A stretch of 64,000 nt of DNA from Eubacteriales bacterium (GTDB lineage Bacteria > Bacillota > Clostridia > Lachnospirales > JAITVM01), in NCBI GenBank assembly GCA_031551135.1, contig JAVBOA010000008.1:10563-74562 (forward strand), read 5' to 3'. The translations under genes and the position numbers were made by a program. Position 1 is the first letter of the stretch; every line of letters begins with the position of its first letter. The notes under the pieces were generated by a model. The model was not told where the DNA came from. It saw only the letters and a list, made by a program, of their open reading frames with translations, and made no database searches. Below, piece by piece: positions 1 to 62,457 of the stretch.

Positions 1-501
1 TTTATTCAAAACATCATAAGTATCTTCCGGAGTATCATTCGTAACCCTTGTATTTCCGCGTACTTTTTTCAATATCGCCAAAAATCCCTCTTTATTTATA
101 CCGAATGTCTTGAAAATACCGGCAACAATTTTATTTGGTTTTTCTATAATCGAAAGCATGATATGTTCCACAGAAACATATTCATCTTTCATATTCGCCG
201 CCAATTTTTCCGCATTAGTCAGATTCGAATCAACATCTGCGGCGATATAAACCGTATTCATCGCCCTGCTCTGCCCCGAAACAACGGGTAATTTTGAAAT
301 CTCTGTTTCAATAATTTTCAATACACTTTCCGAATTTATGTTCATGCCCTGCAAAAGTTCTTTTATCAATCCGTTTTCTTGTTGGATTAAAGCCGCAAGC
401 AAGTGTAATTGTTCTATCTGCGAATTATTTTTTTCAATCGCCAAATTCTGCGCCGATTGTATTACTTCTACAGATTTTTGTGTAAATTTTTGAATATTCA
501 T
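1..501 (-). CDS. clpB: ClpB chaperone, N-terminal part only; the gene continues past the left edge of the window
   Basis: My own translation of the minus strand from ATG at 501: MNIQKFTQKSVEVIQSAQNLAIEKNNSQIEQLHLLAALIQQENGLIKELL...RGNTRVTNDTPEDTYDVLNK. This is the typical ClpB/Clp N-domain. The frame stays open to position 1. Confidence 0.8.
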   Translation of the reverse strand, partial: MNIQKFTQKSVEVIQSAQNLAIEKNNSQIEQLHLLAALIQQENGLIKELLQGMNINSESVLKIIETEISKLPVVSGQSRAMNTVYIAADVDSNLTNAEKLAANMKDEYVSVEHIMLSIIEKPNKIVAGIFKTFGINKEGFLAILKKVRGNTRVTNDTPEDTYDVLNK

Positions 502-506
502 ATATG

Positions 507-1100
507 TCACTCCATTTTATTTTTGTACAATATTTTTATTTTTTCATTATCACCGATAAAATATAATTTCAGTGATTCGTCGAAAGTGTTTATATATTCG
601 CCGATTCTGTAAGCGAAATTTTGATGATTCACAATATTTGTAAAGCGTCTTGTAAAGCGTGCGTTTCTTTCATCATGTATTATGTTTTCGTGATGCCCGG
701 ATTCCAATTCAATCCAAAATTCGAAAAAGCCGTTTAATCTCAAAAGCAGCAATGAATTTTGCGAACGTGAGCTGACTCGAAACTCTGCCGAATATTGTAA
801 ATCTTTTAAATTAATTTCTACAAAATATTTTATAGTCGGATTATATTTATAAAAAACAACGGTTTTCATAGCCAAGGTATTGACGCTTCTTTGAGGCTGT
901 ATCTGTATTTTTTCATTAACTTGCTTGACTATTTCCTCAAAAATCTTCCTAAAATTATCTTCCGGTGTTGTAAACATTAAATAATCAGCCAATATTTGAT
1001 TAATCAGCCCTGAGCGGTTTGTATTTTTTGAATATGCGATTTCGTCTATGCTTTTGACTATTTCTTCAATTAAAATAATTGAATAAATATTTTTTTTCAA
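507..1100 (-). CDS. Ribbon-helix-helix (CopG/Arc-like) N-terminal domain protein with an uncharacterised C-terminal domain
   Basis: 197-aa ORF. The N-terminus YSIILIEEIVKSIDEIAYSKNTNRSGLINQILADYL has a beta-strand / helix / helix RHH pattern. The stop lies 5 nt upstream of the clpB start on the same strand. Confidence 0.55.
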   Translation of the reverse strand: MKKNIYSIILIEEIVKSIDEIAYSKNTNRSGLINQILADYLMFTTPEDNFRKIFEEIVKQVNEKIQIQPQRSVNTLAMKTVVFYKYNPTIKYFVEINLKDLQYSAEFRVSSRSQNSLLLLRLNGFFEFWIELESGHHENIIHDERNARFTRRFTNIVNHQNFAYRIGEYINTFDESLKLYFIGDNEKIKILYKNKME

Positions 1101-1416
1101 ATCATCACCTCTTAACTTTGTAAATCAATTTATATAAACAGTAATACGAATTATTTATTTTATAGTATGAAATTCTGTAAAAAAAATTTAATATTTAATT
1201 GACCAAATAACTTTCGAGAATAGAAAAATCAACGGGAATATTGAACAAATTTCGGCATGTTCTGACAAAGTTCATATCTGCTATTTCCTAAAATCACTGG
1301 ATTTTTGGAGCATTTAACTGTTTTATCTCTATTTGTCATAAAAAACTAAATTTGTTATACTATAATAAATTCCATAGTGTCTTTTGTAAAAAATTTCGAT
1401 AATAAGAATATATAGT

Positions 1417-1532
1417 TATACTATTTTCATTATTAAGGATAGAAAAAAATATTTCATTTCACGCTTGAAGCATGCGTGAAACGCTCCGCTGTGAAAAATT
1501 TTTTTCTGCTTATCAAAATGAAAATAGTATTA
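1417..1532 (+). repeat. Palindromic intergenic repeat, full-length copy 1 (forward orientation)
   Basis: 116 nt: TATACTATTTTCATTATTAAGGATAGAAAAAAATATTTCATTTCACGCTTGAAGCATGCGTGAAACGCTCCGCTGTGAAAAATTTTTTTCTGCTTATCAAAATGAAAATAGTATTA. Near-identical to the copies at 26310 and 42018. Confidence 0.95.
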
Positions 1533-1534
1533 AA

Positions 1535-1543
1535 TGCTATAAT
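1535..1543 (+). promoter_or_regulatory. Candidate extended -10 promoter element (TGCTATAAT) abutting the right end of repeat copy 1
   Basis: Exact TGnTATAAT match about 134 nt upstream of the 1677 start codon. No good -35 hexamer was seen. Confidence 0.3.
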
Positions 1544-1676
1544 GTTTAATTCGAGATTTTTACAAATGCTGTAAATAATTAAACCCGTTATCGACTTGAA
1601 AATTATTTTGCGATTGACACAAATATCGTAAATCGGTCATTTGTTCCAACATGAATTGTTAGGAGGAGAAATCTTG

Positions 1677-2222
1677 ATGATTGGCAAAAAAAAGCTTGCA
1701 ACTTATGCTATGACAGGAGTTTTTATTGCTGCTACCGTAACCACCGTGATAGCTTCAAATGTAGCACCCGGCTCCGAATCCGACCCACTTGTAACAAAAT
1801 CTTACGTTGATACAAAGTTTGAAGAATTAAAGTCTTTAATAAGCAGCTCGAACTCTGGCGCGCCGCTTTCTGAAACTTCTGCAATACTGAGTGATGAAGA
1901 CAGGCAAAAAATCATAACAGAAGTTTTGGCAAAAATTGAAACTGCTCAGGCTGCCGAGAGCCATTTCGTGCCGGTAAAAGTAAACAAAGGCAAAGTTTTG
2001 ATGGGCAGAGAGGGAACTGAAATCATTCTTCGAACCGGACGAGCTTTTGTTTATTCTAAAACAGAAAACGGAGTTTCTGACTTGACTGCCGGAAAAGACT
2101 TGCCAAATGGAGAAAGTGTTACTAAAAACCACTATATGGTTGTTCCGAGAGATGATAATCGAGGAGTTATCCCGATTTCAGACTGTTGGTTCATGGTAAA
2201 AGGAGATTATGAAATCAAATAG
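1677..2222 (+). CDS. Hypothetical membrane-anchored protein (one N-terminal TM helix)
   Basis: AGGAGG at 1661-1666 precedes ATG 1677, giving MIGKKKLATYAMTGVFIAATVTTVIASNV. I do not recognise a domain. It lies immediately upstream of the large surface protein gene. Confidence 0.6.
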   Translation: MIGKKKLATYAMTGVFIAATVTTVIASNVAPGSESDPLVTKSYVDTKFEELKSLISSSNSGAPLSETSAILSDEDRQKIITEVLAKIETAQAAESHFVPVKVNKGKVLMGREGTEIILRTGRAFVYSKTENGVSDLTAGKDLPNGESVTKNHYMVVPRDDNRGVIPISDCWFMVKGDYEIK

Positions 2223-2293
2223 TGATTGCTTTGCTGAAAATCAGAGTTATTTTCAGAAAGGATAAAGCTTGTATTTAAAAAAGTGAGGTAAAA

Positions 2294-5095
2294 ATGAAAA
2301 GAATATTTAAAAAATCTGCTTCAGTAATTGTTTTTCTTACGTTTTTTTTCGTGAACTGTTATGTAGCGAACGCGGCCTATTTACTATTCGAAAAAACTAA
2401 GGTCGAAGATATTTCAAAAGGAGTTACATACTCAAAAATTAATCAAGTAACAAGCGATGGACTTAGGGATATCCACGTAATAAAGGTTCCTACAAAAGAC
2501 CCTAATATTAAAATAAAAAATAAATCTTCCGCAAAAGATTATGAATTAAAAGAAACTACAAGCCAATTAGTGAATTCTGAACAGGACGCTTTAGGCGGCG
2601 TAAACGGAGATTTTTTTGTTTTAAACGGAAGCCATTCTGTGGCACAGGGCGCGACTGTTGAAAATAATTCGCTCGTATCCACCGACAATTTAAATAATTT
2701 GAATAAAAACGAATATTCGACTTTTTGTTTGACCAGCGACGGAAGTCCGTTTATCGACTATATCAAAACAGATATAGATTTTTTAAACAACGGTGTGGAA
2801 AATATTAAAGTTCATTACATGAACAAATATCCAGAAATTACTTACCCGATTTATATGGATGCAAGGGCGATGTCTGATACAAGCCCCGTTGATTCGGTTT
2901 TTCCGAATGTTACGAAAATTATTGTTCAAGACAATAAAATTACCGGTATTTCCCAAAAAGGCGAAACCGTTAAAATTCCGCAAAACGGCTATGTAATAAT
3001 GATTTCCGAACAATCAATCGATTATATTAAAACTTTAGTAAAAGTCGGTGATAAAGCCGAAGTAAAAATTAATGCAAATATTGATTATAACGCTCTTGAA
3101 ACAGCTATCGGCGGCGGCGGTAAACTGCTATCAGGCGGAAAAACCGTTGCAGACAGCGGATTTTATATAAAAGGCAGACAGCCGAGAACAGCAATCGGTA
3201 TCAACAAAGACGGAAACGAAATATTTTTAGTTGTTGTGGACGGCAGAACACATAGTATCGGCGCAACACATGACGAACTTGCCTCGATAATGCAGCGTAT
3301 CGGCGCATATGAAGCTATGCATTTGGACGGCGGCGGCTCCTCGACTATGGTTGTTAAAAAAGACGTTCAAGACAATACAAATGTCGTGAATACGCCTTCC
3401 GAAGGCTATGAGCGCAAAATAATCAACGCTCTCGGTGTTTACAATAAATCCGAAACCGGCGAATTAAAGACCATTAAAATTATCGCAAACGACAAAGTTA
3501 TAAAAGGTTCAGGCTTGAAATATTCTGTTATTGGTTTTGATGATTATTTAAATAAAATAGAGCTTGACCAAGCTCAAATAAGCGTTTTTTCTAGCGATAC
3601 AAACGCAAAATATTCAAACTCAACTTTTTATCCGTCTGTTGCTGGAAATATCAAGCTGACCGCAGTATATAAAAATCTTTCTTATGATTTAAATATTATT
3701 TCGCTGAATGTTTCGTCTTTGATTCCGAATATTCAAAAAATCAAAACCGATATCGGCGTTAAAAACGAAATTTATATGAGCGGAAAAGCAAGCAACGGAA
3801 ATACGGTTTCTATAAATGATAGTCTAAAATACGAGCTTGTTCCCGCCGATTTAGGCAAAATGGAAAACAATGTATTTACTGCAGCAAAAAACGGAAACGG
3901 TTATATAAAAGTAACGTATAACGATATTGTTTCTTATATCGATGTTTCTGTCGGCAAAAAATCAGTACGCCTGTCGCCATTCGATGATGTCGGAAATTTC
4001 GCTTTTGAGGGTTCCTCAAAAGATGTTACCGGAAATGCGTACCATGCAAAAGAGTTTGTTGCCGACGGCGGAGTTTCTATTGCACTCAAATACAAATTCC
4101 CGATTCTCGACAAAACTCAAGCGGCTTATATAGTTTTTAAAGATAAAATTCAATTGAAAAACGACCCAAGCAATATTAAGCTTACGGTTTTCGGCGATAA
4201 TTCTAAAAATTGGCTCAGGGCGAAAATCGTTGACTCGAATAAAAGCGAATTTATTTTAGACCTTGCCAAAGAAATCGATTGGAGCGGCAAAAAAGAAGTA
4301 ACTGCGGCGATTCCGGGCAATGTAAAATATCCGATTTATTTGGAGCGGATTTATCTTGCGTCTTTATCCAATCAATCGGATAAAGAAAGCGTTATCTACG
4401 TTGACCAATTGATGGGTGAAGTCTATTACAATGATTTCTTGGAACATCCGGCAAGCACGGCGTATTGGGATAATTTTAATAAAGATTTAACAAAAGAAAA
4501 TATTCCAAACAGTTTTGATATTACCGCTATCGGAAATATCACCGCCGCCAAAAAACCTGCCAATTATTCCGAAACTCAGAAAAAAGCTGTAGCTTCGCTT
4601 GTAAATAATACAAAAAAAGCGTTATTGATTGGCGCTAACGATTATCCGAATGATTTCGGCGTTCCGATTTTAAAAGCCGGTAAAAACTATACTTTTTATA
4701 CCGAAGGAAATACCGGACTTGTTACAATGAACGCAAACACTGGAAATCTTTACGATTCGAATTTGGATCAATGGCAAAATATCGATAAAGATATCAAGGA
4801 AAAAAACAAAAATAATCTTATTATAATGATGGACAGAAGTCCGTTAAATTTAAGACAGCCGAAAGAATTTGAGTTCTTTCACGATATTCTGTCTCAGCAC
4901 GCTAAAAACGGAAAAAATATTTTTGTAGTCTCTGCGGAAGGCGCATATAATACGGTCGAAGTTCGTGACGGTATACGATATATCAATCTCGGTGCGCTCT
5001 ACAACTCTAGCGGTGAAATAAACAACGACTTTAGAGTACTCCGTTTTAGAATTGCAAATGATAATATTTATTACGATTTACAAAAAGTATTCTAA
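2294..5095 (+). CDS. Secreted multidomain protein with a phosphodiester glycosidase (NAGPA / DUF2233-like) domain
   Basis: 933 aa with an N-terminal signal-like segment. Motifs GGVNGDFF, RTAIGINKDGNEIFLVVVDGR and AMHLDGGGSSTMV are typical of the phosphodiester glycosidase family. Ig-like segments and an unassigned C-terminal region follow. Confidence 0.75.
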   Translation: MKRIFKKSASVIVFLTFFFVNCYVANAAYLLFEKTKVEDISKGVTYSKINQVTSDGLRDIHVIKVPTKDPNIKIKNKSSAKDYELKETTSQLVNSEQDALGGVNGDFFVLNGSHSVAQGATVENNSLVSTDNLNNLNKNEYSTFCLTSDGSPFIDYIKTDIDFLNNGVENIKVHYMNKYPEITYPIYMDARAMSDTSPVDSVFPNVTKIIVQDNKITGISQKGETVKIPQNGYVIMISEQSIDYIKTLVKVGDKAEVKINANIDYNALETAIGGGGKLLSGGKTVADSGFYIKGRQPRTAIGINKDGNEIFLVVVDGRTHSIGATHDELASIMQRIGAYEAMHLDGGGSSTMVVKKDVQDNTNVVNTPSEGYERKIINALGVYNKSETGELKTIKIIANDKVIKGSGLKYSVIGFDDYLNKIELDQAQISVFSSDTNAKYSNSTFYPSVAGNIKLTAVYKNLSYDLNIISLNVSSLIPNIQKIKTDIGVKNEIYMSGKASNGNTVSINDSLKYELVPADLGKMENNVFTAAKNGNGYIKVTYNDIVSYIDVSVGKKSVRLSPFDDVGNFAFEGSSKDVTGNAYHAKEFVADGGVSIALKYKFPILDKTQAAYIVFKDKIQLKNDPSNIKLTVFGDNSKNWLRAKIVDSNKSEFILDLAKEIDWSGKKEVTAAIPGNVKYPIYLERIYLASLSNQSDKESVIYVDQLMGEVYYNDFLEHPASTAYWDNFNKDLTKENIPNSFDITAIGNITAAKKPANYSETQKKAVASLVNNTKKALLIGANDYPNDFGVPILKAGKNYTFYTEGNTGLVTMNANTGNLYDSNLDQWQNIDKDIKEKNKNNLIIMMDRSPLNLRQPKEFEFFHDILSQHAKNGKNIFVVSAEGAYNTVEVRDGIRYINLGALYNSSGEINNDFRVLRFRIANDNIYYDLQKVF

Positions 5096-7644: not shown

Positions 7645-7758
7645 GATACTATTTCCGTTCGAAAGAATAAAAAAAAATATTTCATTTTGCGCTGAAGCAA
7701 TGTGCGTAACGCTCAGCTATGGAATGTTTTTTTCTATACCAAAATGCAAATAGTATAA
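7645..7758 (+). repeat. Palindromic intergenic repeat, diverged full-length copy 2 (forward)
   Basis: GATACTATTTCCGTTCGAAAGAATAAAAAAAAATATTTCATTTTGCGCTGAAGCAATGTGCGTAACGCTCAGCTATGGAATGTTTTTTTCTATACCAAAATGCAAATAGTATAA. Same architecture as the consensus, with many substitutions. Confidence 0.8.
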
Positions 7759-16505: not shown

Positions 16506-16620
16506 ATACTATTTTCATTATAAAGGATAGAAAAAAATATTTCATTTCGCGCTAGAAGCCTGCGCGAAACGCTCCGCTGTGAAAAATTTTTTTCTACTTA
16601 TCAAAATGAAAATAGTATTA
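16505..16620 (+). repeat. Palindromic intergenic repeat, full-length copy 3 (forward)
   Basis: 116 nt. It carries the CGCGC/GCGCG inner-stem variant (TTTCGCGCTAGAAGCCTGCGCGAAA). It lies between the convergent ntpD and SLH-protein genes. Confidence 0.95.
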
Positions 16621-19016: not shown

Positions 19017-19366
19017 ATTTCTTTCCCTCCATATAACGGCAATTTATAAAACTGCGAGCCTTTCATATGAAGATACCTATTTTCGAGTAAATACTCATTT
19101 CTAATTTCTATAAATTGCACTGAAACTTATACCGCTATTTCTGAAATAATTAATCTCCCTCCTTTAAAAATAAAAAAACATAACAAACGAATATAATTCA
19201 TGATTTTTAAAAATACTTTTTAGACAGGTTTACAAAAATTATATAAGCGTAGTTTATAGCTTACATGAAAATTTTTGTGATTCCATTAAAATTTACTCGA
19301 GTTGCGATATATAATATTATTATATTTAGTACAACTATTGATAATAAAAGTAAAATTTAATTGTCT

Positions 19367-19406
19367 TATACTATTTCCATTATAATAGAAAACAGAAATA
19401 GTATTA
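19367..19406 (+). repeat. Mini (internally deleted) derivative of the palindromic repeat
   Basis: TATACTATTTCCATTATAATAGAAAACAGAAATAGTATTA keeps both termini (TACTATTTC / GAAATAGTA pair) but lacks the ~75-nt core. Confidence 0.65.
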
Positions 19407-23678: not shown

Positions 23679-23690
23679 TTCTTTTTATAA

Positions 23691-23755
23691 TATAAAAAAA
23701 TATTTCATAATGCACGGCATTTTGAAAAACGCCTCAAATGCATTATGAAATATTT
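23691..23755 (-). terminator. Perfect 17-bp hairpin between convergent genes; a likely terminator for the PhzF gene, with an arm sequence that resembles the repeat core
   Basis: AAATATTTCATAATGCA (23698-23714) pairs with TGCATTATGAAATATTT (23739-23755). The run of A at 23694-23700 becomes a T-run after the stem on the minus strand. Confidence 0.6.
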
Positions 23756-23768
23756 CTCGCTTATACTA

Positions 23769-24542
23769 TTATAGAATAATTTCACCTTTTAAAAATATTT
23801 TCGCTTTGCCGCCAATCTTAACACGGTCACCGTGGTACTCACAAAAAAGTTTTCCGCCGCGTTTCGATAATTGTGTTGCAATCATTTTATCTTTCTTTAA
23901 AATATCCGCCCAATAAGGGATTAATGTTGTATGTGACGAGCCGGTCACATAATCTTCCGAAATTCCGGCCTTTGGGCAAAAAAATCTGGACACAAAATCC
24001 GAATCGTCACCTTTTGCGGTAACAATCACTCCAAATATGTTTTCTAAAGAACAAATCAAATCCATATTCGGTTTTAGCTCACGCACAGTTTTTTCATCTT
24101 CCAAAACCAGCATCAAATCTCTGGAGGAATATGCCTCCAAAACTTTCGCACCCACAGCTCTTTGCATCTCTATTGTGCGTTCAATCGGCTCCGGCTTTCG
24201 GGTTGGGAAATTCAGCATATAGATATCATTATTTCTCTCAACATATAAAATTCCGCTTTTTGTATGGAACTCAATTTTCTTAGATTTTTCGACATAATTA
24301 TTTATTGCAAAAGCCGCAGCCAAAGTGGCATGCCCGCATAAATCCACTTCAACAAGAGGCGTAAACCAGCGTAAATCATAATAGCCGCCGTTTTTTAAAA
24401 CAAAGGCGGTCTCTGCGAGGTTATTCTCAAAAGCTATATTCTGCAAAATTTCGTCGTCAAGTTTTTCTTCAAGAATACAAACACCGGCAGGATTGCCTTT
24501 AAAATTTTTATCAACAAAAGCATCAATTACAAAATAAAGCAT
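23769..24542 (-). CDS. PhzF family isomerase
   Basis: MLYFVIDAFVDKNFKGNPAGVCIL...NLAETAFV...LRWFTPLVEVDLCGHATLAAA is the PhzF-family signature. Confidence 0.88.
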   Translation of the reverse strand: MLYFVIDAFVDKNFKGNPAGVCILEEKLDDEILQNIAFENNLAETAFVLKNGGYYDLRWFTPLVEVDLCGHATLAAAFAINNYVEKSKKIEFHTKSGILYVERNNDIYMLNFPTRKPEPIERTIEMQRAVGAKVLEAYSSRDLMLVLEDEKTVRELKPNMDLICSLENIFGVIVTAKGDDSDFVSRFFCPKAGISEDYVTGSSHTTLIPYWADILKKDKMIATQLSKRGGKLFCEYHGDRVKIGGKAKIFLKGEIIL

Positions 24543-24571
24543 AAAATCCCCCCAAAATTAAAAAATTCTAA

Positions 24572-25468
24572 TCAATTCGGCAATTCGTCTTCTTCGCAGT
24601 CCTCCCCTGCGCAAATAGTGAATTTTTCTACCATAAAATCGGGGTCATAAGAGAGCTTCATTTTTCTGAGTCCCTCGATTCCCATATCTTCCATAAAATT
24701 CACATCTTCACATTCTGTAAAATAATTTTCGCAAAATAATTTAAACAGCGCAACCGATGCACCGCGGTAATTGACATCCGATTTCGCTATTTGAATCAGC
24801 ATAGAATTATGCTGTTTTTCAGCCATTATTATACCGGCGATTTCGCCGTCAACAATCAAACATCTCGAAATAAATCCTAATTTTTCTCTATGTTTCAAAA
24901 CTTTCAGCGTTGCAAAAAGTTCCCGTTCCGGGTTCAAGCTGCGCTCAAATATTATTTCTTTCAATTTAATTTTACATTTTTCCTCATTTGAATCGTCGAT
25001 ATCAACAAATTGATATTCAAAATTTTTTTTAAAATAATTAAAATGATTTTTTTGCCCGTGGAGTTTTTTGCCCGAAAGTCCGGCTAATTTCTCTCTTTTG
25101 TATAAGTAATCAAAAAGATCTCTACGAACGACTAATTTATGATTTTTGCACAAATCAAAAGATTTGAGTTCCTCCAACATTCGCGTTGTTATACTTATCA
25201 ATTTAAATTGCTTATTTAAAGCCTTTGCATCGTTTCGAAGCTCCATAATCGCATCTTTTATATTTTCCGTTTCGCCGATCGGATACATATAGCCGTCAAA
25301 ATTTTTAACACATAAGCAGTCATTAATCACAGCAAATTGTGTGCTGTACATTTCTTCCCACGCGAAAAGCGTCGCAAAATCATATTCCGAACTTATATCT
25401 TTATTAATTGAATAATACTTTTGAAAAATATCTTTATCATCTATCTCGATAGATTTAAAGCTTATCAT
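24572..25468 (-). CDS. DUF2156 domain protein (lysyl-PG synthase C-terminal-like / GNAT fold)
   Basis: About 298 aa. SEYDFATLFAWEEMYSTQFAVINDCLCVK is typical of DUF2156. The ATG at 25468 has better RBS spacing than the GTG at 25474. Confidence 0.6.
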   Translation of the reverse strand: MISFKSIEIDDKDIFQKYYSINKDISSEYDFATLFAWEEMYSTQFAVINDCLCVKNFDGYMYPIGETENIKDAIMELRNDAKALNKQFKLISITTRMLEELKSFDLCKNHKLVVRRDLFDYLYKREKLAGLSGKKLHGQKNHFNYFKKNFEYQFVDIDDSNEEKCKIKLKEIIFERSLNPERELFATLKVLKHREKLGFISRCLIVDGEIAGIIMAEKQHNSMLIQIAKSDVNYRGASVALFKLFCENYFTECEDVNFMEDMGIEGLRKMKLSYDPDFMVEKFTICAGEDCEEDELPN

Positions 25469-25542
25469 AAACACTCTTCTTTCTAAAGTCTTTGAAATTA
25501 TAGGTATTAACCATTATTTTATTTCCAAATTTTTCTTTTTAC

Positions 25543-25572
25543 AAAAAAGGTTTTAGATTATAATCTAAAACC
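25543..25572 (-). terminator. Intrinsic terminator (minus strand) downstream of yajC
   Basis: Perfect palindrome GGTTTTAGATTA/TAATCTAAAACC, followed on the minus strand by TTTTTT. Confidence 0.65.
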
Positions 25573-25614
25573 AAAAACTACCGCTGTAAATTTTGAAAAA
25601 ATCCATATCAAGTC

Positions 25615-25638
25615 AAAACGGCGTATACACGCCGTTTT
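25615..25638 (-). terminator. Second hairpin downstream of yajC
   Basis: AAAACGGCGT-ATAC-ACGCCGTTTT. The T-run forms part of the stem, and it lies 65 nt after the yajC stop. Confidence 0.45.
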
Positions 25639-25703
25639 TAAGGTTTCCGCATCATGCTTAAAAAAATAATATCGAATAAATCTTATCAATAAATATGTTC
25701 TAT

Positions 25704-26150
25704 TTATTTAGAAGGTTTTTCCGAAACTTGAGCATCTTTTTTTAGCGGGTATACATCAGATTTTCTGACAGGTATTCTAACGCCTTTGTTTGTACCAAAC
25801 TCTATAATATATTTATCATCAATTTTTTCAACTACTTTTCCAAAAAGTCCGCCGGAAGTATGAACCTCGTCACCAATCGTAATCGCTTCCTGCAAATCGC
25901 GTACAGCTTTTTCTTTTTTCTTTTGTGAACGGCTTGTAAAATAAAAAGCTGCACCAATTACAACAACATACAACAACAAAATTCCCATGCTTCCAAAAGG
26001 ACTGCCACTGTTAGCGTTTCCATTATTTTGCGTTTGTGTAGAAGCTGTTGTTTGAGTGCTCTGTTCATTTTTATTACCGCTCGGGCCGACTATAAATTCG
26101 CCGGGATTTTCCGAAGAAGTCAATAAAACCATATTGTAAGCTTGAATCAT
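25704..26150 (-). CDS. yajC: Preprotein translocase subunit YajC with a long low-complexity N-terminal extension
   Basis: The C-terminal 90 aa, LLLYVVVIGAAFYFTSRSQKKKEKAVRDLQEAITIGDEVHTSGGLFGKVVE, is canonical YajC. The strong AGGAGA RBS supports the long form, which begins with a Q/T/N-rich segment. Confidence 0.85.
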   Translation of the reverse strand: MIQAYNMVLLTSSENPGEFIVGPSGNKNEQSTQTTASTQTQNNGNANSGSPFGSMGILLLYVVVIGAAFYFTSRSQKKKEKAVRDLQEAITIGDEVHTSGGLFGKVVEKIDDKYIIEFGTNKGVRIPVRKSDVYPLKKDAQVSEKPSK

Positions 26151-26309
26151 AAAATACTCTCCTAATTAAAGATTCCGCAATCCCAATGAGATTGCTTTTA
26201 TGTAAATTTAATATTGCACAGCAAGTTTTCTGCCGACCTCAAACTTGCCTTAACCAATTATATACAAGTAAAAGAGCATCGTCAAGTGATATCTTGCGGT
26301 TTGATTTTT

Positions 26310-26424
26310 TATACTATTTTCATTATTAAGGATAGAAAAAATATTTCATTTCACGCTTGAAGCATGCGTGAAACGCTCCGCTGTGAAAAATTTTTTTCTA
26401 CTTATCAAAATGAAAATAGTATTA
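26310..26424 (+). repeat. Palindromic intergenic repeat, full-length copy 4 (forward)
   Basis: 115 nt. It differs from copy 1 at only a few positions. It lies upstream of the CPBP gene. Confidence 0.95.
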
Positions 26425-26538
26425 CAAAAATAAATTTACAAAAAATGAAATTTGATGGTAATCAATAAGTAATCTTTATAATGTTAAAATCTATCTGCTA
26501 AAGAATTTATTACAAAATATTTTGAAAGTAGGTATATT

Positions 26539-27219
26539 ATGAAAAACAATGAAAAAAAATTAGAGGCTTCCATATTTAACATTTTAGTTTTGGTTATTAT
26601 TTATTTTTTATTTACAGGAATTTTTCCGTTATTTATAAATATAATTATTGCAAAATCTACAGAAATCGACCTATCGATATGGCTGAATGTAATTACGGTT
26701 TTTTCGACAAATGTAATTTTTTTGTACGCAATAAAACAATACTATAATTTTGAGTATTATTTTGGCGAAAATATAAATATCAAGACAATCTTTTTAGGAA
26801 TAATATTGGCAGTCGCATTATTTGGATTTTTTAATTATTTCTTAGTACCGTTCCTGAGTAAATATATAAATCCTAATGAATATATCAGCCAGCTTGAATC
26901 GATGAAAATATTTCCGCTCCAGAATATTGTATTAACTTGTTTAATTGCGCCATTATCCGAAGAATTATTTTTGAGGGCATATATCGTTAGAGGCTTATAT
27001 AATAAATACAATCCTTTTATTGCGATTCTCGTTTCCTCAATTTTGTTTGCAGTAATTCATTTCAATATGATTCAAGGAATTTTGGCTTTTATTTTTGGCA
27101 TTGCCGTCGGCTGTTTATATTTGGCAACAGGTTCGATTTTTTCTTGCATCATTACGCATTTTTTATATAATTTATTCCTTTATATAGCTTATAGTAACTT
27201 TGTACTAATTTCATTTTGA
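26539..27219 (+). CDS. CPBP family intramembrane glutamic endopeptidase (CAAX protease / Abi-like)
   Basis: 226 aa and polytopic. It has the EELFLRAY motif and the FAVIHF motif. Confidence 0.88.
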   Translation: MKNNEKKLEASIFNILVLVIIYFLFTGIFPLFINIIIAKSTEIDLSIWLNVITVFSTNVIFLYAIKQYYNFEYYFGENINIKTIFLGIILAVALFGFFNYFLVPFLSKYINPNEYISQLESMKIFPLQNIVLTCLIAPLSEELFLRAYIVRGLYNKYNPFIAILVSSILFAVIHFNMIQGILAFIFGIAVGCLYLATGSIFSCIITHFLYNLFLYIAYSNFVLISF

Positions 27220-27335
27220 TAATACTAATTCCCATTTGATTTGTAGAAAAAAATTTTCACAGCGAAGCGTTCCGCGCAACGCTTCAAGCGCGGAATGAAA
27301 TATTTTTTTCTATTCTTTAAAAGGGAAATAGTATA
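27220..27335 (-). repeat. Palindromic intergenic repeat, diverged full-length copy 5 (reverse orientation)
   Basis: TAATACTAATTCCCATTTGATTTGTAGAAAAAAATTTTCACAGCGAAGCGTTCCGCGCAACGCTTCAAGCGCGGAATGAAATATTTTTTTCTATTCTTTAAAAGGGAAATAGTATA. It starts directly after the CPBP stop codon. Confidence 0.85.
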
Positions 27336-27376
27336 AGTAGAAAATAAATTTTCAGAATTTACTCAGCAAAAAAATT

Positions 27377-27419
27377 AAAAGGCCGTGCAATGATTTAAAA
27401 AATCGCACAGCCCTTTTTT
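27377..27419. terminator. Bidirectional terminator between the CPBP gene and the 5'-nucleotidase gene
   Basis: AAAAGGCCGTGC ... GCACAGCCCTTTTTT forms an imperfect stem flanked by an A-run and a T-run. Confidence 0.6.
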
Positions 27420-27453
27420 ATATATGTCGCATTAATGATTTGAAATCAAAAAT

Positions 27454-28974
27454 TTATTTTTTAATCAAAATTTCCGGTGCTTCAAAATTAACTACTTTTT
27501 CAGCTCTCATAGCTTCAGCCATAGCGTCACGAATCGGAAGAGTATCGGCTAAATGTTTAGCAGATAAGAAAGAAGTAAATCCGTCGCCGCCTGTTGCCAT
27601 AAAGTCATTAGTTACAACATTATAAACTTTGTCGTCTGCCAAAGCAGTGCCGTCGTCCAATTTAACCGAAATCAAGTTCACAGCTTTATCATTCATAGAA
27701 TATTCCACTGTTAATCCGGAAAATTGTACCGAGCCGATTTCTGCATTTTCAATACCATGAGTCAAAACTTGTTTAATTTGAGCTCCTGTCATTTCAAAAG
27801 TAGAAAGAACATTATCAAAAGGCATTACTTCATATAAATCGCCCATTGTAATATTTCCGGCTTCCAGACCGCGCCTCAAGCCGCCGCCGTTTGTAAATGC
27901 GATATCAGCATCTGCTGATTGTCTCATAATTTCTGCTGTCCAAATTCCCAAAGGAGATAATTTATATCTGTCATGTGCAAGACCTGCATCTGTTTTAGCA
28001 ACGATATCATTTAATATAGGAGCTACTTTTCTTTGGTAAACGCCCATATTAACGCTCATTGATAAATTGTCAGGAATTTCAGCTTTTCTTAAATATAATT
28101 CATCCAAAGAAGGTGTTACTTTAACAACTTTTTTGTTTGCGTCTACTTCAAAAGAAAGTTTCGCAAGAGTACGTCCGTTGTAATACGCTTGAACAACCGG
28201 AACATTGTTATAAAAACCACAAACTGTATTATGCGAATGCGCCGTAATTATAGCGTCGACACCTTTTATAGAAGCCAAGCCTTCTGCGCCTGATTCAAAA
28301 GTTATTGCTTTGGTGTCCGAATTCTGGCTTGTACCGATATGTGATAAAATCACAACAATATCACAGCCGGCAGCTTTCATTTGCGGAACCATTATTTTTG
28401 CAGTTTCAACCGGATCTCTAAATTCAATACCTTCAACGTTTTCCGGTTTTGTTTTGTAAGCTGTTTCAGGTGTTGTCAATCCCAAAAATCCTACTTTTAT
28501 CCCATCAATTTCTTGAATAATATATGGTTTTACATAATCTGCAGGTTTATCTGTTGCTTTGTCGTAAATATTAGCAGCAACAAAAGGAGCTCCCATTGTG
28601 TTTTCCCAAGTAGCAAATTTGTCTACGCCCCAGTCATATTCGTGGTTACCGACAGCAGATGCTGCTATACCGATATTGTTAAGCATAAGAGCAACCGGTT
28701 CACCATACAAGAGATTTGAAGCCGCAGAACCGTTAAAATTATCGCCCGCGGAAACAACTACTGTATTAGGATTTTTTCTGGTGTGCTGCCTAATAGCCTC
28801 AACAAATTTCGCCGCACCCATATTTTTGTCCTTTTCACCGGTAGATAACAGAGCACCATGAAAATCATTAAAGCTGATAACATCGATTGTCTTTGTAGCT
28901 GTTGCACCAAAAACCTGAGTGGCGAGCAATAAAGACAGTACTAAAGCAAAAATAATACTTAAACGTTTTTTCAT
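27454..28974 (-). CDS. Secreted bifunctional metallophosphatase / 5'-nucleotidase (UshA-like)
   Basis: 506 aa with a signal peptide. Motifs NDFHG, GDNFNG, GNHEYDWG and the C-terminal 5'-nucleotidase domain are present. Confidence 0.9.
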   Translation of the reverse strand: MKKRLSIIFALVLSLLLATQVFGATATKTIDVISFNDFHGALLSTGEKDKNMGAAKFVEAIRQHTRKNPNTVVVSAGDNFNGSAASNLLYGEPVALMLNNIGIAASAVGNHEYDWGVDKFATWENTMGAPFVAANIYDKATDKPADYVKPYIIQEIDGIKVGFLGLTTPETAYKTKPENVEGIEFRDPVETAKIMVPQMKAAGCDIVVILSHIGTSQNSDTKAITFESGAEGLASIKGVDAIITAHSHNTVCGFYNNVPVVQAYYNGRTLAKLSFEVDANKKVVKVTPSLDELYLRKAEIPDNLSMSVNMGVYQRKVAPILNDIVAKTDAGLAHDRYKLSPLGIWTAEIMRQSADADIAFTNGGGLRRGLEAGNITMGDLYEVMPFDNVLSTFEMTGAQIKQVLTHGIENAEIGSVQFSGLTVEYSMNDKAVNLISVKLDDGTALADDKVYNVVTNDFMATGGDGFTSFLSAKHLADTLPIRDAMAEAMRAEKVVNFEAPEILIKK

Positions 28975-31412: not shown

Positions 31413-31530
31413 TAACACTATTTTCATTTTGATAAGAAGAAAAAAATTTTTCACAGCGGAGCGTTTCGCGCAATGTTTCTAGCGCGAAATGAAATATTTT
31501 TTTCTATACCTTTATATTGAAAATAGTATA
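31413..31530 (-). repeat. Palindromic intergenic repeat, full-length copy 6 (reverse orientation)
   Basis: 118 nt. TAACACTATTTTCATTTTGATAAGAAGAAAAAAATTTTTCACAGCGGAGCGTTTCGCGCAATGTTTCTAGCGCGAAATGAAATATTTTTTTCTATACCTTTATATTGAAAATAGTATA. Confidence 0.93.
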
Positions 31531-31667
31531 ATCTTGTTTTAAAATCGGCGAATATATTTTTCCTTAAGCATTTTTACGAAATGAAGCTCGGCAAAAAATG
31601 AAATTGGATATAAACATAAATCTTTGGATTTCGTATATTTGTCTATAATCAAAAAGGAGGTAAAAAT

Positions 31668-42017: not shown

Positions 42018-42133
42018 TAAACTATTTTCATTATTAAGGATAGAAAAAAATATTTCATTTCACGCTTGAAGCATACGTGAAACGCTCCTCTGTGAAAAAT
42101 TTTTTTCTACTTATCAAAATGAAAATAGTATTA
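42018..42133 (+). repeat. Palindromic intergenic repeat, full-length copy 7 (forward)
   Basis: 116 nt. Its last three bases (TTA, 42131-42133) are the complement of the TAA stop codon of the hemolysin III gene. Confidence 0.95.
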
Positions 42134-42775
42134 AATAAAAAGGAACATTAGTAATATATGAAAAAAACTACCCAGCATAACCAATACATGAAAAATTTCA
42201 TGAAAGCCGAAATGCTTAAATGAAGGTTTTTTTATAGCATAAACCACGCCGCCGGCAGTATACGCAACGCCGCCAAGAGCAAGCAATAAAAATCCCATCG
42301 GGTGCAAAGATTTTGAAAGCGGCACAAAAGCTACAATAACGAGCCAACCCATGAATAGATAAATTCCGGAAGTCAGCCAGCGAGGCATGTTTATAAAAAA
42401 CACTTTAAAAAGAATTCCCAAAATCGCAATTGACCAAACAAGAATCAAAAGTGTATATCCCCAAACGCCTCTTAATGTTATTAAACAAATCGGCGTATAC
42501 GAACCGGCAATCAAAACAAAAATCATCATATGGTCGATTTTGCGCAGCAACTCGGATTTTTTTTCGGATATTTTGAGCATATGATAAAATGTACTCGCGG
42601 CGTATAATAAAATCAAAGCGGCTCCGAAAACCGAAAAACTTACAATATGCCAAACCGTGGCCGTAAGCGCCGCCTTAATTATCAAAAATACGGTAACAGG
42701 AATACAGCAAATTAGCGCAATCAAATGGGTAAGCGTGCTGATAGGGTCTTTAAACTTATTCATCATAATAAACAT
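42131..42775 (-). CDS. Hemolysin III / PAQR family membrane protein
   Basis: 214 aa with 7 TM helices. It has the HxxxH-type C-terminal motif HEIFHVLV. The start could also be the internal MNKF. Confidence 0.88.
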   Translation of the reverse strand: MFIMMNKFKDPISTLTHLIALICCIPVTVFLIIKAALTATVWHIVSFSVFGAALILLYAASTFYHMLKISEKKSELLRKIDHMMIFVLIAGSYTPICLITLRGVWGYTLLILVWSIAILGILFKVFFINMPRWLTSGIYLFMGWLVIVAFVPLSKSLHPMGFLLLALGGVAYTAGGVVYAIKKPSFKHFGFHEIFHVLVMLGSFFHILLMFLFI

Positions 42776-51511: not shown

Positions 51512-51546
51512 TTATACTATTTTCATTTTGATAAGTAGAAAAAAAT
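51512..51546 (-). repeat. Truncated copy (35 nt) of the palindromic repeat, reverse orientation
   Basis: TTATACTATTTTCATTTTGATAAGTAGAAAAAAAT matches the repeat terminus and stops at the A-run. It ends 1 nt from the telA stop codon. Confidence 0.8.
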
Positions 51547-51547
51547 A

Positions 51548-52813
51548 TTATGAGTTTTGCAATAAAGTTTGTTTTACTTGCTCTTCCAATTTTTTGATTT
51601 CAACTTCTGCAAGTGCTCTCTCTTCTTTGCCCTTTTTTTGGATGGCCACAACGCCGTTTATTGTTTCGATCAGATTATTATTTGTAATCTGCAAGGTTTC
51701 GAGGCTCACTATTCCTCTTTCGCCCTCTTCCGCAATTTCTAAAGCGCCTTGTTTTAATAATTCGCTGTTACGCTGCAAAAGCTCATTTGTAGTATCCGTA
51801 ATATGTTTTTGCAAACCAAGCGCCGCTCTGTTATTTGCTATTCCCAAAGATATAACCATTTGACTTTTCCAAACAGGAATTGCCGTAAAAATCGAATTTT
51901 GAATTTGATAAACCAATTGTTCGCTGCCTTGCTGAACCAATCTGATTTGCGGTGCGTTTTGAATACTCACCAATCTTGTACGCAAAAGGTCATCAATTTT
52001 CTTTTCAAATTTTACTTGGATATCATTCATTTCATTGTATTTCTGGATTTCCATTTGGTCGTTGGAAGAAGTAGCAGCTTCTTTTTGTTTGGCAACTTCC
52101 TGCGTATACGATTTTAATTTTTCCTTAGCGGCAATTAAAATATAAGTAAGTTCTTTATAATACTGAACGTTTGTATTATACATTCCGTCCATGATTTTAA
52201 CATTACCAATTAATTTATCCTTAGATTTTTCAAGCTTATCGACAATCGTATCAATTGTTTTTTCAACAGTATCAAATTTTGCAAGCATTTTTTCAGTTTC
52301 TTTTTTCGATAAAACAATTTGATTTTTAATTTGTTTGCCGATGTTTGAAGCTCCTTCGGAAGCTTTTTTTGCGCCCGAATTTAATCCGCCGAAAAGATTC
52401 GATAAAAATCCCGGCTTGGAATCGTCTTTAAAATCAAAATTTTTGATTTCCGAGGTAAGGTCAACCAACGAATTAGCAACATCGGCATCCAATTCATTTA
52501 CTTTTATGCTTCTCAAAATTTGGTCGCAAAACTCGGCTATTTTCTGCTGAGTATTAACGCCGTAAGTTATTACGCCGTCTGTAGAAGATAAATCGATTTT
52601 TGAAACAATGTTTTCCACCAATTGGCGTTCTTGCGGGGTCAAAATTTCCAATGACAAACTATCCTTAGTTTTTTCCTGAACTTCCGTGCTTTGCGACTGT
52701 GCAGGCGGCTCTACGACTTTAGATTCTCCGTATGGGTCAATATCCATCAGAGGCGCGCCGTTATCCGGTAATCCCATTTCAAAATCTTTCATTATTCCGT
52801 TGTTTTCTTCCAT
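51548..52813 (-). CDS. telA: TelA / YaaN family toxic anion resistance protein
   Basis: 421 aa. All-helical TelA-type sequence, with about 50 aa of acidic N-terminal extension. Confidence 0.8.
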   Translation of the reverse strand: MEENNGIMKDFEMGLPDNGAPLMDIDPYGESKVVEPPAQSQSTEVQEKTKDSLSLEILTPQERQLVENIVSKIDLSSTDGVITYGVNTQQKIAEFCDQILRSIKVNELDADVANSLVDLTSEIKNFDFKDDSKPGFLSNLFGGLNSGAKKASEGASNIGKQIKNQIVLSKKETEKMLAKFDTVEKTIDTIVDKLEKSKDKLIGNVKIMDGMYNTNVQYYKELTYILIAAKEKLKSYTQEVAKQKEAATSSNDQMEIQKYNEMNDIQVKFEKKIDDLLRTRLVSIQNAPQIRLVQQGSEQLVYQIQNSIFTAIPVWKSQMVISLGIANNRAALGLQKHITDTTNELLQRNSELLKQGALEIAEEGERGIVSLETLQITNNNLIETINGVVAIQKKGKEERALAEVEIKKLEEQVKQTLLQNS

Positions 52814-55196: not shown

Positions 55197-55312
55197 TATA
55201 CTATTTTCATTATAAAGGATAGAAAAAAATATTTCATTTCGCGCTTGAAGCCTGCGCGAAACGCTCCGCTGTGAAAAATTTTTTTCTACTTATCAAAATG
55301 AAAATAGTATTA
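55197..55312 (+). repeat. Palindromic intergenic repeat, full-length copy 9 (forward)
   Basis: 116 nt with the CGCGC/GCGCG inner-stem variant, nearly identical to copy 3. Confidence 0.95.
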
Positions 55313-56143: not shown

Positions 56144-56217
56144 CTGGGTGTGGCGTAGTTTGGTAGCGCGCTTGCTTCGGGAGTAAGAGGTCGCAAGTTC
56201 AAATCTTGTCACCCAGA
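56144..56217 (+). tRNA. tRNA-Pro (anticodon CGG)
   Basis: Hand-folded cloverleaf: acceptor CTGGGTG/CACCCAG with C1-G72, D stem GCGT/GCGC, anticodon stem CTTGC/GTAAG with loop TTCGGGA (G37), and T arm GCAAG-TTCAAAT-CTTGT. No encoded CCA. Confidence 0.9.
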
Positions 56218-56274: not shown

Positions 56275-56302
56275 TAATACTATTTTCATTTTGAATAGTA
56301 TA
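56275..56302 (-). repeat. Mini derivative (28 nt) of the palindromic repeat: the two termini joined
   Basis: TAATACTATTTTCATTTTGA + ATAGTATA. ATACTATT pairs with AATAGTAT. It lies 58 nt downstream of tRNA-Pro. Confidence 0.6.
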
Positions 56303-56353
56303 AAATGCTTCGAATCTACGTTTATAGATACGAAGAAAACAGGATGTGAGTTT

Positions 56354-57879: not shown

Positions 57880-58596
57880 TTACGCAAACTTCTCCCTTAT
57901 GGTTTTCAAAACTTTTTTTTCGATTCTCGAAACCTGAACCTGTGAAACTCCAATCGCATTTGCAACTTCTGTTTGGGTTTTATCATCAAAATACCGCATA
58001 ATAATAACCTTGCGTTCTTTCGGCTTTAGCTCACTTATAATTTGTTTAAGCACGATATTATCAATCATATTTCCGTCAGATTTATCACAAAGTTCGAGTT
58101 TGTCAATCAAATAAATTGGATTTCCATCGCCTTGATAAATCGTACTGTAAAGCGATTCGACCTCCATTCCGGCTTCCATAGCCATAACCAATTCTTCTGC
58201 TTCAATATTCATATATTCGGCGATTTCGTTTATCGTAGCGTCGCGCCCTTTTTCCTGAGATATTTTTTCTTTTACATATTTCGCTTTGTTTGCGATTTCT
58301 TTCAGCGGACGCGAAACTTTGATTATGCCGTCATCTCTCAAAAACCGTTTTATTTCGCCCATAATCATCGGTACAGCATAAGTAGAAAATTTCACATCAT
58401 AATTGATATCGAACTTATTAATACATTTTAAAAGCCCGATAGAACCTATTTGAAATAAATCTTCAATTTCGTAGCCCCTGTTTGCGAATTTTTTTACAAT
58501 ACTCCAAACAAGCCCCTGATTTTCGGAGATAATTTTTTCGCAGGCGGCTTTATCGCCCGACTGCGCCATCAAAATCAGTCTTTTGTATTCTTCCAT
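57880..58596 (-). CDS. sigF: Sporulation sigma factor F
   Basis: 238-aa sigma-70 family protein (regions 2-4), placed immediately downstream of spoIIAA-spoIIAB. Confidence 0.9.
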   Translation of the reverse strand: MEEYKRLILMAQSGDKAACEKIISENQGLVWSIVKKFANRGYEIEDLFQIGSIGLLKCINKFDINYDVKFSTYAVPMIMGEIKRFLRDDGIIKVSRPLKEIANKAKYVKEKISQEKGRDATINEIAEYMNIEAEELVMAMEAGMEVESLYSTIYQGDGNPIYLIDKLELCDKSDGNMIDNIVLKQIISELKPKERKVIIMRYFDDKTQTEVANAIGVSQVQVSRIEKKVLKTIREKFA

Positions 58597-58616
58597 AAAA
58601 ACGCCCCCATAAATCT

Positions 58617-59048
58617 CTATGATTGGGAGATTTTCTTCCTCATAATAATTTTAGTTCCGTTATTTCTTTCCGAAAAAACTTCCAAGCCGTCCATAAAAGT
58701 CTCCATAACAGTAAAGCCCATTCCGCTGCGTTCACTTTCCGGTTTTGAGGTATAAAGCGGAGTCATCGCTTCGCCGACATCATCAATCCCCAAGCCTGTA
58801 TCTTTTATTTCGATGATAATTTCGTTTTCAAAAGTAAGTTTGCAATTTATGTAAATTTGTCCTTTTTTATTATCGTATCCGTGAATTATAGAATTTGTGA
58901 CAGCCTCGGACACAGCGACTTTTATATCGGAGATTTCGCTGACAGTGGGGTCTGTTTGAGAAGCAAACGCCGCCACACAGACCCGCGCCAATGCTTCGTT
59001 AGATGATTTGCTTTCTATAATCAAAGTCATTTCATTTTTAAAGTCCAT
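58617..59048 (-). CDS. spoIIAB: Anti-sigma F factor / serine kinase SpoIIAB
   Basis: 143 aa with the HATPase_c motifs [18 protein letters not shown] and SGMGFTVM. Confidence 0.92.
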
Positions 59049-59060
59049 TATTTGCCCTCC

Positions 59061-59393
59061 TTATTCTATCGATTTTATGGCTTTTTCCAGACTATCATAC
59101 ACTTTGATAATCCGGTACAATCCTGAAATATCAAAAATCCGTTTAAGCTCCTCATTTATACCGCTGACTGCGATTTTTCCGCCAAGCTTTTCGATAGCTT
59201 TGTACCGCCCGATAATCATACCGATTCCCGAAGAATCCATAAAATAAACTTTCGAAAAATCCATGATAATATTTTTGCACCTAAGCCTATGAAATTCTTT
59301 ATCTATTTTATCCCGAAGCTCTTCTGAGCTATGATGGTCTATATCTCCATTTATTTTAATAATCAAATTATTATCAAGATTATAAATTTCCAA
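59061..59393 (-). CDS. spoIIAA: Anti-anti-sigma F factor SpoIIAA (STAS domain)
   Basis: 110 aa. FMDSSGIGMIIGRYK carries the phosphorylatable Ser motif. TTG start follows GGAGGTG. Confidence 0.9.
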   Translation of the reverse strand: MEIYNLDNNLIIKINGDIDHHSSEELRDKIDKEFHRLRCKNIIMDFSKVYFMDSSGIGMIIGRYKAIEKLGGKIAVSGINEELKRIFDISGLYRIIKVYDSLEKAIKSIE

Positions 59394-61992: not shown

Positions 61993-62104
61993 ACAGCAAG
62001 CTTCCTCCTGTCAGGTTATTTTTCCGGCTTTTTTTAGAAATAGCCGGTTTTGTAGTAATTAACCATTTTTTATCTTTAGTAGAAATTCTTTTATAGCCAG
62101 ATTA

Positions 62105-62320
62105 TTATGTTATAACAGAATTTTCATCCATATCCGTTTTTTTATTTTCTAAAATTTTTAATATGTAATTTTTATAAATCGCTCCGATAATATAAAAAAT
62201 ACATATAACAAAAATAAGTCTGTATGCTATAAAAGTTGGATCCATCCTGTAAATAATACAGTTTATCGCAACAACAATTGCTGCGAAGAGGCTAATCAAA
62301 ATATGAATTTTCTCAGCCAT
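62105..62320 (-). CDS. Small hypothetical two-TM membrane protein between cheD and sigD
   Basis: 71 aa and hydrophobic, with a plausible GGAATGG RBS. Confidence 0.45.
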   Translation of the reverse strand: MAEKIHILISLFAAIVVAINCIIYRMDPTFIAYRLIFVICIFYIIGAIYKNYILKILENKKTDMDENSVIT

Positions 62321-62457
62321 CCAACCATTCCTATCTAAATAATGTGAATTCGATACAATTAAAATCGCCTCGAATTTTTTGATAATACTCGATTAAAAAC
62401 GCTTTACCTTCGGTTTTAATCCGCTTTGCGGATTTGTTCGGCTTCGCCGGACTCACG

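Follow-up and report, generated by a model that had tools for sequence, protein, structure and literature searches.

An intergenic hairpin element and its copies

The 64,000-nucleotide stretch analysed here (hereafter, the window; contig JAVBOA010000008.1, positions 10,563 to 74,562, of the Eubacteriales bacterium assembly GCA_031551135.1) carries, beside a gene for a CAAX/Rce1-like protease (26539-27219), an intergenic sequence at 26310-26424 that an earlier inspection of the letters alone (hereafter, the sequence-only reading) had flagged for an inner hairpin preserved by paired substitutions. The flagged region is exactly one copy, from target-site duplication (TSD) to TSD, of a dispersed repeat. 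That this copy is one of the miniature inverted-repeat transposable elements (MITEs), non-autonomous transposons bounded by terminal inverted repeats (TIRs), is in our judgement very likely. The transposable-element identity, evident from the TIRs, the TTA TSD and the nesting of one copy described below, was overlooked by the sequence-only reading.

The element proper measures 110-113 bp across copies. The flagged copy (copy 4; 26312-26421, plus strand, 110 bp, nhmmer E=1e-34) begins with TACTATTTTCATT (left TIR, 26312-26324) and finishes with AATGAAAATAGTA (right TIR, 26409-26421, plus strand), a perfect 13-bp inverted repeat whose complementarity is 13/13 in copies 1, 3, 4, and 9, and it is flanked by TTA on the left (26309-26311) and on the right (26422-26424). 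Inward of the TIRs, a first TTTCA (26344-26348) pairs over a bulge with TGAAA at 26384-26388, in the minimum-energy fold as well as in the RNAalifold consensus. It is followed by the inner hairpin (26349-26373), composed of TTTCACGC, the loop TTGAAGCAT and GCGTGAAA, and by an asymmetric segment, AACGCTCCGCTG (26372-26383), of which 10 nt are unpaired in the best fold. The element has no coding capacity, with stops in all six frames and a longest open stretch of 31 codons.

The two halves of the element are imperfect inverted copies of each other. Either strand, as single-stranded DNA (ssDNA) or as RNA, therefore folds as one long hairpin, with the flagged 8-bp stem at its tip. The pairing is thus largely inherited from the inverted-repeat architecture. 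Comparison of minimum free energies with shuffled controls, which the sequence-only reading had proposed as a check, bears out the structure: copy 4 folds at -33 and -35 kcal/mol as RNA (z about -6.1 on each of the two strands) and at -24.5 kcal/mol as DNA (z -7.4).

Eight full copies lie in the window; searching for repeats, matching a tolerant gapped pattern and scanning with an nhmmer profile all returned this set. Numbered 1-7 and 9, they start, with their left flanks, at 1416, 7644, 16504, 26309, 27219, 31412, 42017, and 55196, all on the plus strand except those at 27219 and 31412. All are intergenic, in divergent, convergent and tandem settings with unrelated flanks, and mean identity within the family is 92%. 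A ninth copy (P0123), traced through a protein-database search with a chimera of the six translated frames of the element, is a spurious open reading frame (ORF) on another contig of the assembly, and its translation reads TTA-element-TTA. The junction TTATACTATT occurs 13 times, against an expectation of 0.31.

Target-site duplications and a nested insertion

The element is flanked by TTA on both sides at seven of the eight full copies, including copy 1 (1419-1529, plus strand; TSDs 1416-1418 and 1530-1532). The old, degenerate copy 2 (7647-7755, plus strand) lies between TGA and TAA. Duplications of 3 bp also border two mini derivatives that consist of terminal repeats only. One, of 35 bp (19369-19403, plus strand), lies within TTA...TTA flanks (19366-19406) and carries the compensated C-G variant of the terminal repeat; the other, of 23 bp (56278-56300, plus strand), lies within TAA...TAA flanks (56275-56303), about 60 nt downstream of a tRNA gene (56144-56217). 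These minis are either internally deleted copies that were still mobilised or deletions formed in place.

The strongest single item of evidence is copy 5 (27223-27333, minus strand; TSDs 27220-27222 and 27334-27336), which represents a divergent subfamily with three compensated pairs. Excising 27223-27333 together with one TAA joins 27202-27222 to 27337-27356 and gives TACTAATTTCATTTTGATAAGTAGAAAATAAATTTTCA, which is identical at 35/38 positions to the right arm of copies 3 and 9. Copy 5 therefore went into a TAA within an older solo right arm on the minus strand, whose outer part (27202-27219) resumes at 27337-27356, and it duplicated that triplet. The nesting is direct evidence of transposition, and the reconstruction establishes that the target contributed the triplet only once.

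Two other arrangements of this locus were considered. The idea that copies 4 and 5 form a composite transposon with the CAAX gene was rejected, as each copy has its own TTA TSD. TRF had suggested that the end of copy 5 was tandemly duplicated; the nesting replaced this explanation, since the interrupted arm continues past the other end of copy 5.

Logan contigs assembled from short reads of the same organism (L060, SRR23967709; L061, SRR23967707), retrieved by a look-up of the neighbouring nucleotidase, break off some 35 nt within copies 5 and 6, as a high-copy repeat would lead one to expect. A JGI metagenome contig (L062, positions 1-4874, compared with 23769-28974 of the window) comes from a relative with 78% amino-acid identity and a guanine-plus-cytosine content of 40%. 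It keeps the order nucleotidase-yajC-LPG synthase-PhzF and the yajC promoter TTGACG-17-TATAAT, and it has neither the CAAX protease gene nor either of the flanking element copies. By this comparison, a block of about 1.2 kb (26309-27360) is an insertion or deletion between the two lineages.

Compensatory substitutions follow subfamilies

The inner 8-bp stem exists in three Watson-Crick versions. It reads TTTCACGC...GCGTGAAA in the copies at 1416 and 26309, TTTCGCGC...GCGCGAAA in those at 16504, 31412 (minus strand) and 55196, and TTCCGCGC...GCGCGGAA in copy 5 at 27219 (minus strand). The copy at 42017 (copy 7) has the 5' arm of copies 1 and 4 with one C.A mismatch. The loop varies among TTGAAGCAT, TAGAAGCCT, TTGAAGCCT, TAGAAACATT, and TTGAAGCGTT, and in the terminal stem of copy 5 TTTCCC pairs with GGGAAT. 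The three stem versions, the single mismatch of copy 7, the variable loops and the outer-stem covariation of copy 5 had all been described in the sequence-only reading, and side-by-side reading of the copies confirmed each of them.

In an alignment of the eight copies (A2, to whose columns the pair numbers below refer), 97% of the cells of the 38 consensus pairs are paired, as opposed to 48-64% when partners are slid by one to three columns. Four pairs have changed on both sides, two of them (46/67 and 48/65) in the inner hairpin, and the covariation score exceeds that of 500/500 shuffles. Moreover, when about 16 stem substitutions were placed at random over five branches in 100,000 Monte Carlo trials, with the degenerate copy 2 left out, the probability of obtaining at least four compensated Watson-Crick pairs was <=1e-5. 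The compensation is non-random, even with few copies, and the claim that double substitutions keep intrastrand complementarity far above chance stands. Pairing within a single strand must therefore be favoured in some way.

The further claim that two of the paired changes are independent is only partly sustained: the compensation is real, but not all of the events are separate. The A-T version of pair 48/65 is common to copies 1, 4, and 7, which also share a linked T at column 20, and so represents one event rather than several; copy 1 belongs to this A-T stem subfamily, and copy 3 (16507-16617, plus strand, between convergent genes) has the G-C stem. The C-G version of pair 13/109 is common to copy 5 and the mini at 19369. 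Pairs 15/107 and 46/67 have changed in copy 5 only. The private stem substitutions of copies 1, 6, and 7 are uncompensated in 6/6 cases (two G.U, four broken pairs). A terminal A.A mismatch at column 16 is present both in copy 6 and in the ninth copy, and has thus outlived transposition. This distribution fits compensated changes that map to subfamily branches and not to individual loci.

The same pattern could in principle arise at the DNA level, and the caveat of the sequence-only reading, that templated repair of palindromic DNA may mimic compensation, stays live. Quasi-palindrome correction occurs in bacteria. Under this explanation, which we hold to be rather unlikely, the ssDNA hairpin would form at replication and a mismatch in one arm would be copied into the other by intrastrand template switching or mismatch correction, with no selection or RNA function involved. 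The strength of the hairpin as ssDNA (-24.5 kcal/mol, z -7.4) is in its favour, and the change at 15/107 is a transversion pair (A-T to C-G) with no wobble intermediate, which copying would produce more easily than stepwise selection on an RNA. The hairpin tip is also hypervariable (4/10 columns against 8/76 in stems), with columns 53 and 59 as a possible mutational hot spot. Against it, conserved asymmetries persist in all copies (the bulge of 10-12 nt, and ATTATAAAGGATAG versus CTACTTATCAAAAT). In copy 5, mismatches at 10/112 and 16/106 stand uncorrected 1-3 nt from compensated pairs, which would confine a copied patch to <=5 nt, and the 6/6 uncompensated private substitutions in young copies likewise speak against it.

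Two of the four compensated pairs (13/109 and 15/107) lie inside the 13-bp TIRs, where recognition of half-sites by a protein is a plausible cause of matched change without any hairpin: the terminal changes of copy 5 would track a variant transposase, and the inner palindrome would be bound by a dimeric protein of the host or the transposon. The ends do include a distinct subfamily, as the terminal variant TTTCC occurs alike in copies 2 and 5, the mini at 19369 and a solo end at 39257. The inner-stem changes, however, are not common to this subfamily; 46/67 is found only in copy 5, and 48/65 occurs in the young A-T subfamily, which has standard ends. The column 16 A.A mismatch was carried through transposition, which indicates that end recognition tolerates asymmetry, and no candidate protein was identified. 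We regard half-site recognition as an improbable source of the paired changes.

Alternative folds, the one-sided segment and transcription

According to the sequence-only reading, the inner hairpin competes with a second helix in which the left TTTCAC pairs with a downstream GTGAAA. The two helices are not mutually exclusive. Because TTTCA occurs twice on the 5' side (TTTCA-TTTCACGC), both form together: TGAAA past the bulge takes up the first TTTCA, while GCGTGAAA pairs with the second unit. Of the 16 copy/strand minimum-energy folds, 13 contain the TTTCA/TGAAA helix alongside the inner stem, as does the RNAalifold consensus. The proposed alternative helix shows no double changes and needs G.T pairs in five of the eight copies. 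The idea of a bistable RNA fares no better, given the lack of covariation in the alternative helix and the advantage of 5-8.5 kcal/mol that the main fold has on the plus strand in 6/8 copies.

A different alternative, a helix between loop and bulge, is perfect in copy 5 (GAAGCGTT/AACGCTTC) and is present in copy 2. In six copies it is 5-8.5 kcal/mol worse than the main fold on the plus strand. The minus strand turns its A.C mismatches into G.U, and there the gap to the main fold is within 1.5 kcal/mol for copies 1, 4, 5, and 7 and 3-5 kcal/mol for the G-C subfamily. With energies that vary in this way from copy to copy, the loop-bulge fold is not a conserved feature.

The one-sided 12-nt segment AACGCTCCGCTG is indeed found in 8/8 copies with 0-2 mismatches (10 matches against 2.2 expected), but it shows no special conservation. 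In the six young copies, variable columns number 1/10 in the bulge, 8/76 in the stems, 2/19 in other unpaired positions and 4/10 in the loop, so that the segment varies as little as the rest of a young family, and its interpretation as a ligand or protein site is not supported. All four combinations of alleles occur at loop columns 53 and 59, which points to recurrent mutation at the tip of the palindrome.

If the repeat were transcribed, either with neighbouring mRNAs or alone, its hairpin, possibly a switch between two folds, might serve as a stabiliser, a processing site or a protein-binding element, and selection on that RNA would explain the covariation, which is real. Several observations lean this way. 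Single-sided stem transitions on the plus strand give G.U seven times and A.C twice, though 5/7 of the G.U pairs come from the degenerate copy 2. In 3/3 tandem contexts (copies 6, 7, and 9) transcription from the upstream gene would run into the minus form, the strand on which the loop-bulge fold lies within 1.5 kcal/mol of the main fold in the four copies named above, and RNAs of MITEs are known to be transcribed, some with functional motifs (PMC3184786).

The genomic context argues otherwise. Copies 1, 2, and 4 lie between divergent genes, and copy 4, placed between the predicted yajC and CAAX promoters, is probably untranscribed. Orientation with respect to transcription is inconsistent overall; 3/3 tandem copies amounts to P=0.125, and a TTA/TAA target preference at stop codons can also explain the tandem orientation. 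Native terminators stand between genes and elements at copies 5 and 9 (that at copy 9 predicted), the alternative folds show no covariation and come out 3-5 kcal/mol worse in the G-C subfamily, and individual copies decay without compensation. Nor does the element match a described RNA. Only two tRNAs in the window reach the Rfam gathering score, and the element itself gave only sub-threshold matches to plant microRNA precursors (20-27 bits, against the 94-195 needed). A riboswitch would be expected to hold a consistent position and orientation in transcripts, and copies instead occur in divergent, convergent and tandem regions; as for an intrinsic terminator-like repeat (SPRITE-type), whose GC-rich stem runs straight into a U-tract, a terminator scan flagged none of copies 4, 5, 6, and 9. 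A structured RNA is accordingly an improbable account of the repeat.

A further possibility, to which we give little credence, is that the fold-back itself is the functional unit, either as an ssDNA hairpin intermediate whose pairing the transposition machinery would read along the whole element and not at the ends alone, or through host co-option of a minus-strand RNA hairpin, almost bistable in the A-T subfamily, and an outward promoter (ATGAAA-17-TATAAT), which would influence the expression of genes downstream, for example the radical-SAM gene beside copy 9. Were this so, the compensations would amount to true structural selection in a previously unseen family of bacterial MITEs.

Proposed selection for matched arms in transposing lineages

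Taken together, the observations fit selection for matched arms in the lineages that transpose, and it is to this that we give the highest weight. The MITE has spread through the intergenic DNA of a low-GC, probably spore-forming, Firmicute-like genome. The compensatory changes would have arisen in the source (master) lineages of the subfamilies, where elements with matched arms, both at the transposase-bound ends and in the fold-back core, would keep being mobilised; copies, once inserted, would then decay neutrally. As one whole statement, comprising a non-autonomous cut-and-paste MITE and a master-lineage cause of the compensation, we put the probability at about one half.

Several points weigh against that statement. 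Cut-and-paste transposition by DDE enzymes is not known to require an internal hairpin. No transposase domain, including Y1, was found by Pfam among the roughly 60 ORFs of the window that were scanned, which leaves the autonomous partner and the family assignment unproven; these ORFs are housekeeping genes, among them the V-type ATPase operon, pyrBI, the sporulation sigma-F operon and cheCD. No empty site was recovered, the only relative (L062, 78% amino-acid identity) being too diverged in its intergenic DNA. Finally, only eight to nine copies with about four compensatory events were collected, and the distinction between change in master lineages and change in situ rests on small counts, with the long branch of copy 5 indivisible.

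Relation to described mobile repeats

Plant Tourist MITEs typically use TTA/TAA targets. Taken by itself, the 3-bp A/T-rich TSD points to a DDE transposase of the IS5/PIF-Harbinger type that would act in trans. Duplications of 3 bp are typical of the PIF/Harbinger-IS5 (PHIS) superfamily and are the hallmark that the element has in common with Tourist-like MITEs (PMC2213677; PMC4482050). Bacterial IS5 targets, however, are ANT and not strictly TTA (PMC4482050), Tourist-like MITEs are eukaryotic, and no IS5-type transposase was found in the window.

Bacterial MITEs of 100-400 bp with terminal repeats, target duplications and long stem-loops have been reviewed (PMC3184786). Like the Correia/NEMIS elements of Neisseria, ERIC of enterobacteria and RUP of pneumococcus, the present element falls in the range of 100-160 bp, is non-coding, intergenic and multicopy, has TIRs and a short A/T-rich TSD, and forms one long stem-loop (PMC3184786). 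As in Correia elements, an outward promoter-like site is present. It differs in that no sequence similarity was found to plasmids, phages or Rfam, in its TSD, which is TTA (3 bp) rather than TA, and in the poorly sampled host lineage, which belongs to a different phylum from theirs; its ends, moreover, span 13 bp, compared with 26 bp in Correia.

Matching behaviour is seen in bcr1 of the Bacillus cereus group, likewise an intergenic mobile repeat of Firmicutes, in which base-pair compensatory changes are reported to keep the fold and individual copies to have repeatedly lost stability (PMC3184786). The compensation flagged here thus has direct precedent. In form the two differ, bcr1 being about 155 bp long with 5-bp direct repeats and a cruciform of two stem-loops, whereas the present element has 111 bp, a 3-bp TTA TSD and a single hairpin with a one-sided bulge. 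REP/BIME sequences and palindromes derived from IS200/IS605 are also intergenic palindromic repeats, and the recognition of their hairpins as ssDNA offers a model for why pairing could matter to a transposase. Those hairpins, however, are GC-rich, 20-40 nt long, without TIR or TSD, and linked to Y1 enzymes (RAYT/TnpA), in contrast to an AT-rich element of 111 bp that has both TIRs and TSD and no Y1 gene in the window.

Nucleotide scans elsewhere gave no further copy. Scans of JGI metagenomes with a strict 21-mer, or with a tolerant gapped pattern that matches all eight window copies, returned nothing, and scans of IMG/VR viral contigs returned no copy. Blastn against plasmids and phages gave only chance matches of 20-30 nt (E about 0.3), and a degenerate 18-mer, too loose a pattern, gave only single chance matches in unrelated taxa among species-representative genomes. 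A literature search on the end sequence yielded only an unrelated human paper, and an exact look-up of the neighbouring CAAX protein found no record. The repeat represents a hitherto undescribed family within an ordinary class of elements rather than a novel RNA switch.

It offers a small, clean case of a MITE in bacteria that has a Tourist-like TSD of 3 bp (TTA) and a nested insertion, in an almost unsampled Firmicute lineage. Compensatory substitutions in a repeat, by themselves, are not evidence for an RNA gene; here they track the subfamily, or source-copy, history of a mobile hairpin.

Effects on neighbouring genes

The older solo arm that received copy 5 encodes the end of the CAAX protease gene, contributing its last seven codons (NFVLISF) and its TGA stop; the 3' end of this gene has thus been reshaped by the element. 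Elsewhere, stop codons seem to attract insertions through the preference for TTA/TAA targets. Copy 6 (31416-31528, minus strand) has its TSD at 31413-31415, 1 nt past the stop codon of an M42 peptidase gene, and the right TSD of copy 7 (42020-42130, plus strand), at 42131-42133, is the TAA stop of an HlyIII-family gene (42131-42775, minus strand).

Copy 9 (55199-55309, plus strand) has its left end 19 nt upstream of the start (55176) of a B12-binding radical-SAM gene. Just before this copy, the upstream gene is closed by a terminator-like hairpin and its T-run (55347-55327, minus strand), and the only promoter-like site ahead of the radical-SAM gene is ATGAAA-17-TATAAT (55237..55209, minus strand), in the left arm of copy 9. 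Copy 9 may therefore supply a predicted outward promoter to that gene, as judged from sequence motifs. The variant end of copy 6 gives TTGAAA-17-TAAAAT at 31517-31545, which points to yccF.

The element thus inserts at or beside TAA stops, provides one gene with its stop and another with its C-terminus, and may carry an outward promoter. It also fragments short-read k-mer assemblies, a warning for both binning and annotation. In view of the assembly breaks and the effects on gene ends, it should be masked or annotated in analyses of this genome.

Host lineage and residual derivatives

At 57880-59393 and 61231-63566 the window encodes SpoIIAA, SpoIIAB and sigma-F-like genes, a second factor of the sigma-70 family, CheC/CheD, SLH-domain proteins and the V-type ATPase operon. 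This gene content suggests a motile, spore-forming Firmicute of a very poorly sampled lineage. For the neighbouring nucleotidase, the closest sampled relative of the organism is only 78% identical, and the nearest named homologues, in Tepidibacter, have 51-54% identity.

Beyond the full copies and minis, the window contains a solo right arm (51515-51549, minus strand) that abuts the stop of the TelA gene, with TTA at 51512-51514, and further solo ends at 23761, 33830, and 39257. The two solo right arms, at 51512-51549 and 27202-27356, both end near the same internal point, around the start of the T-run/TGAAA segment, and align with each other slightly past this shared break point. They might represent a distinct short type of element or a preferred deletion end-point.

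A separate palindrome with a 17-bp stem, AAATATTTCATAATGCA...TGCATTATGAAATATTT (-20.6 kcal/mol), lies at 23686-23765. Its arm has the motif AAATATTTCAT in common with the element, and the solo TTATACTATT end follows at 23761. It may be a related or rearranged member of the family or else, between the convergent genes for GNAT and PhzF, a terminator that works in both directions.

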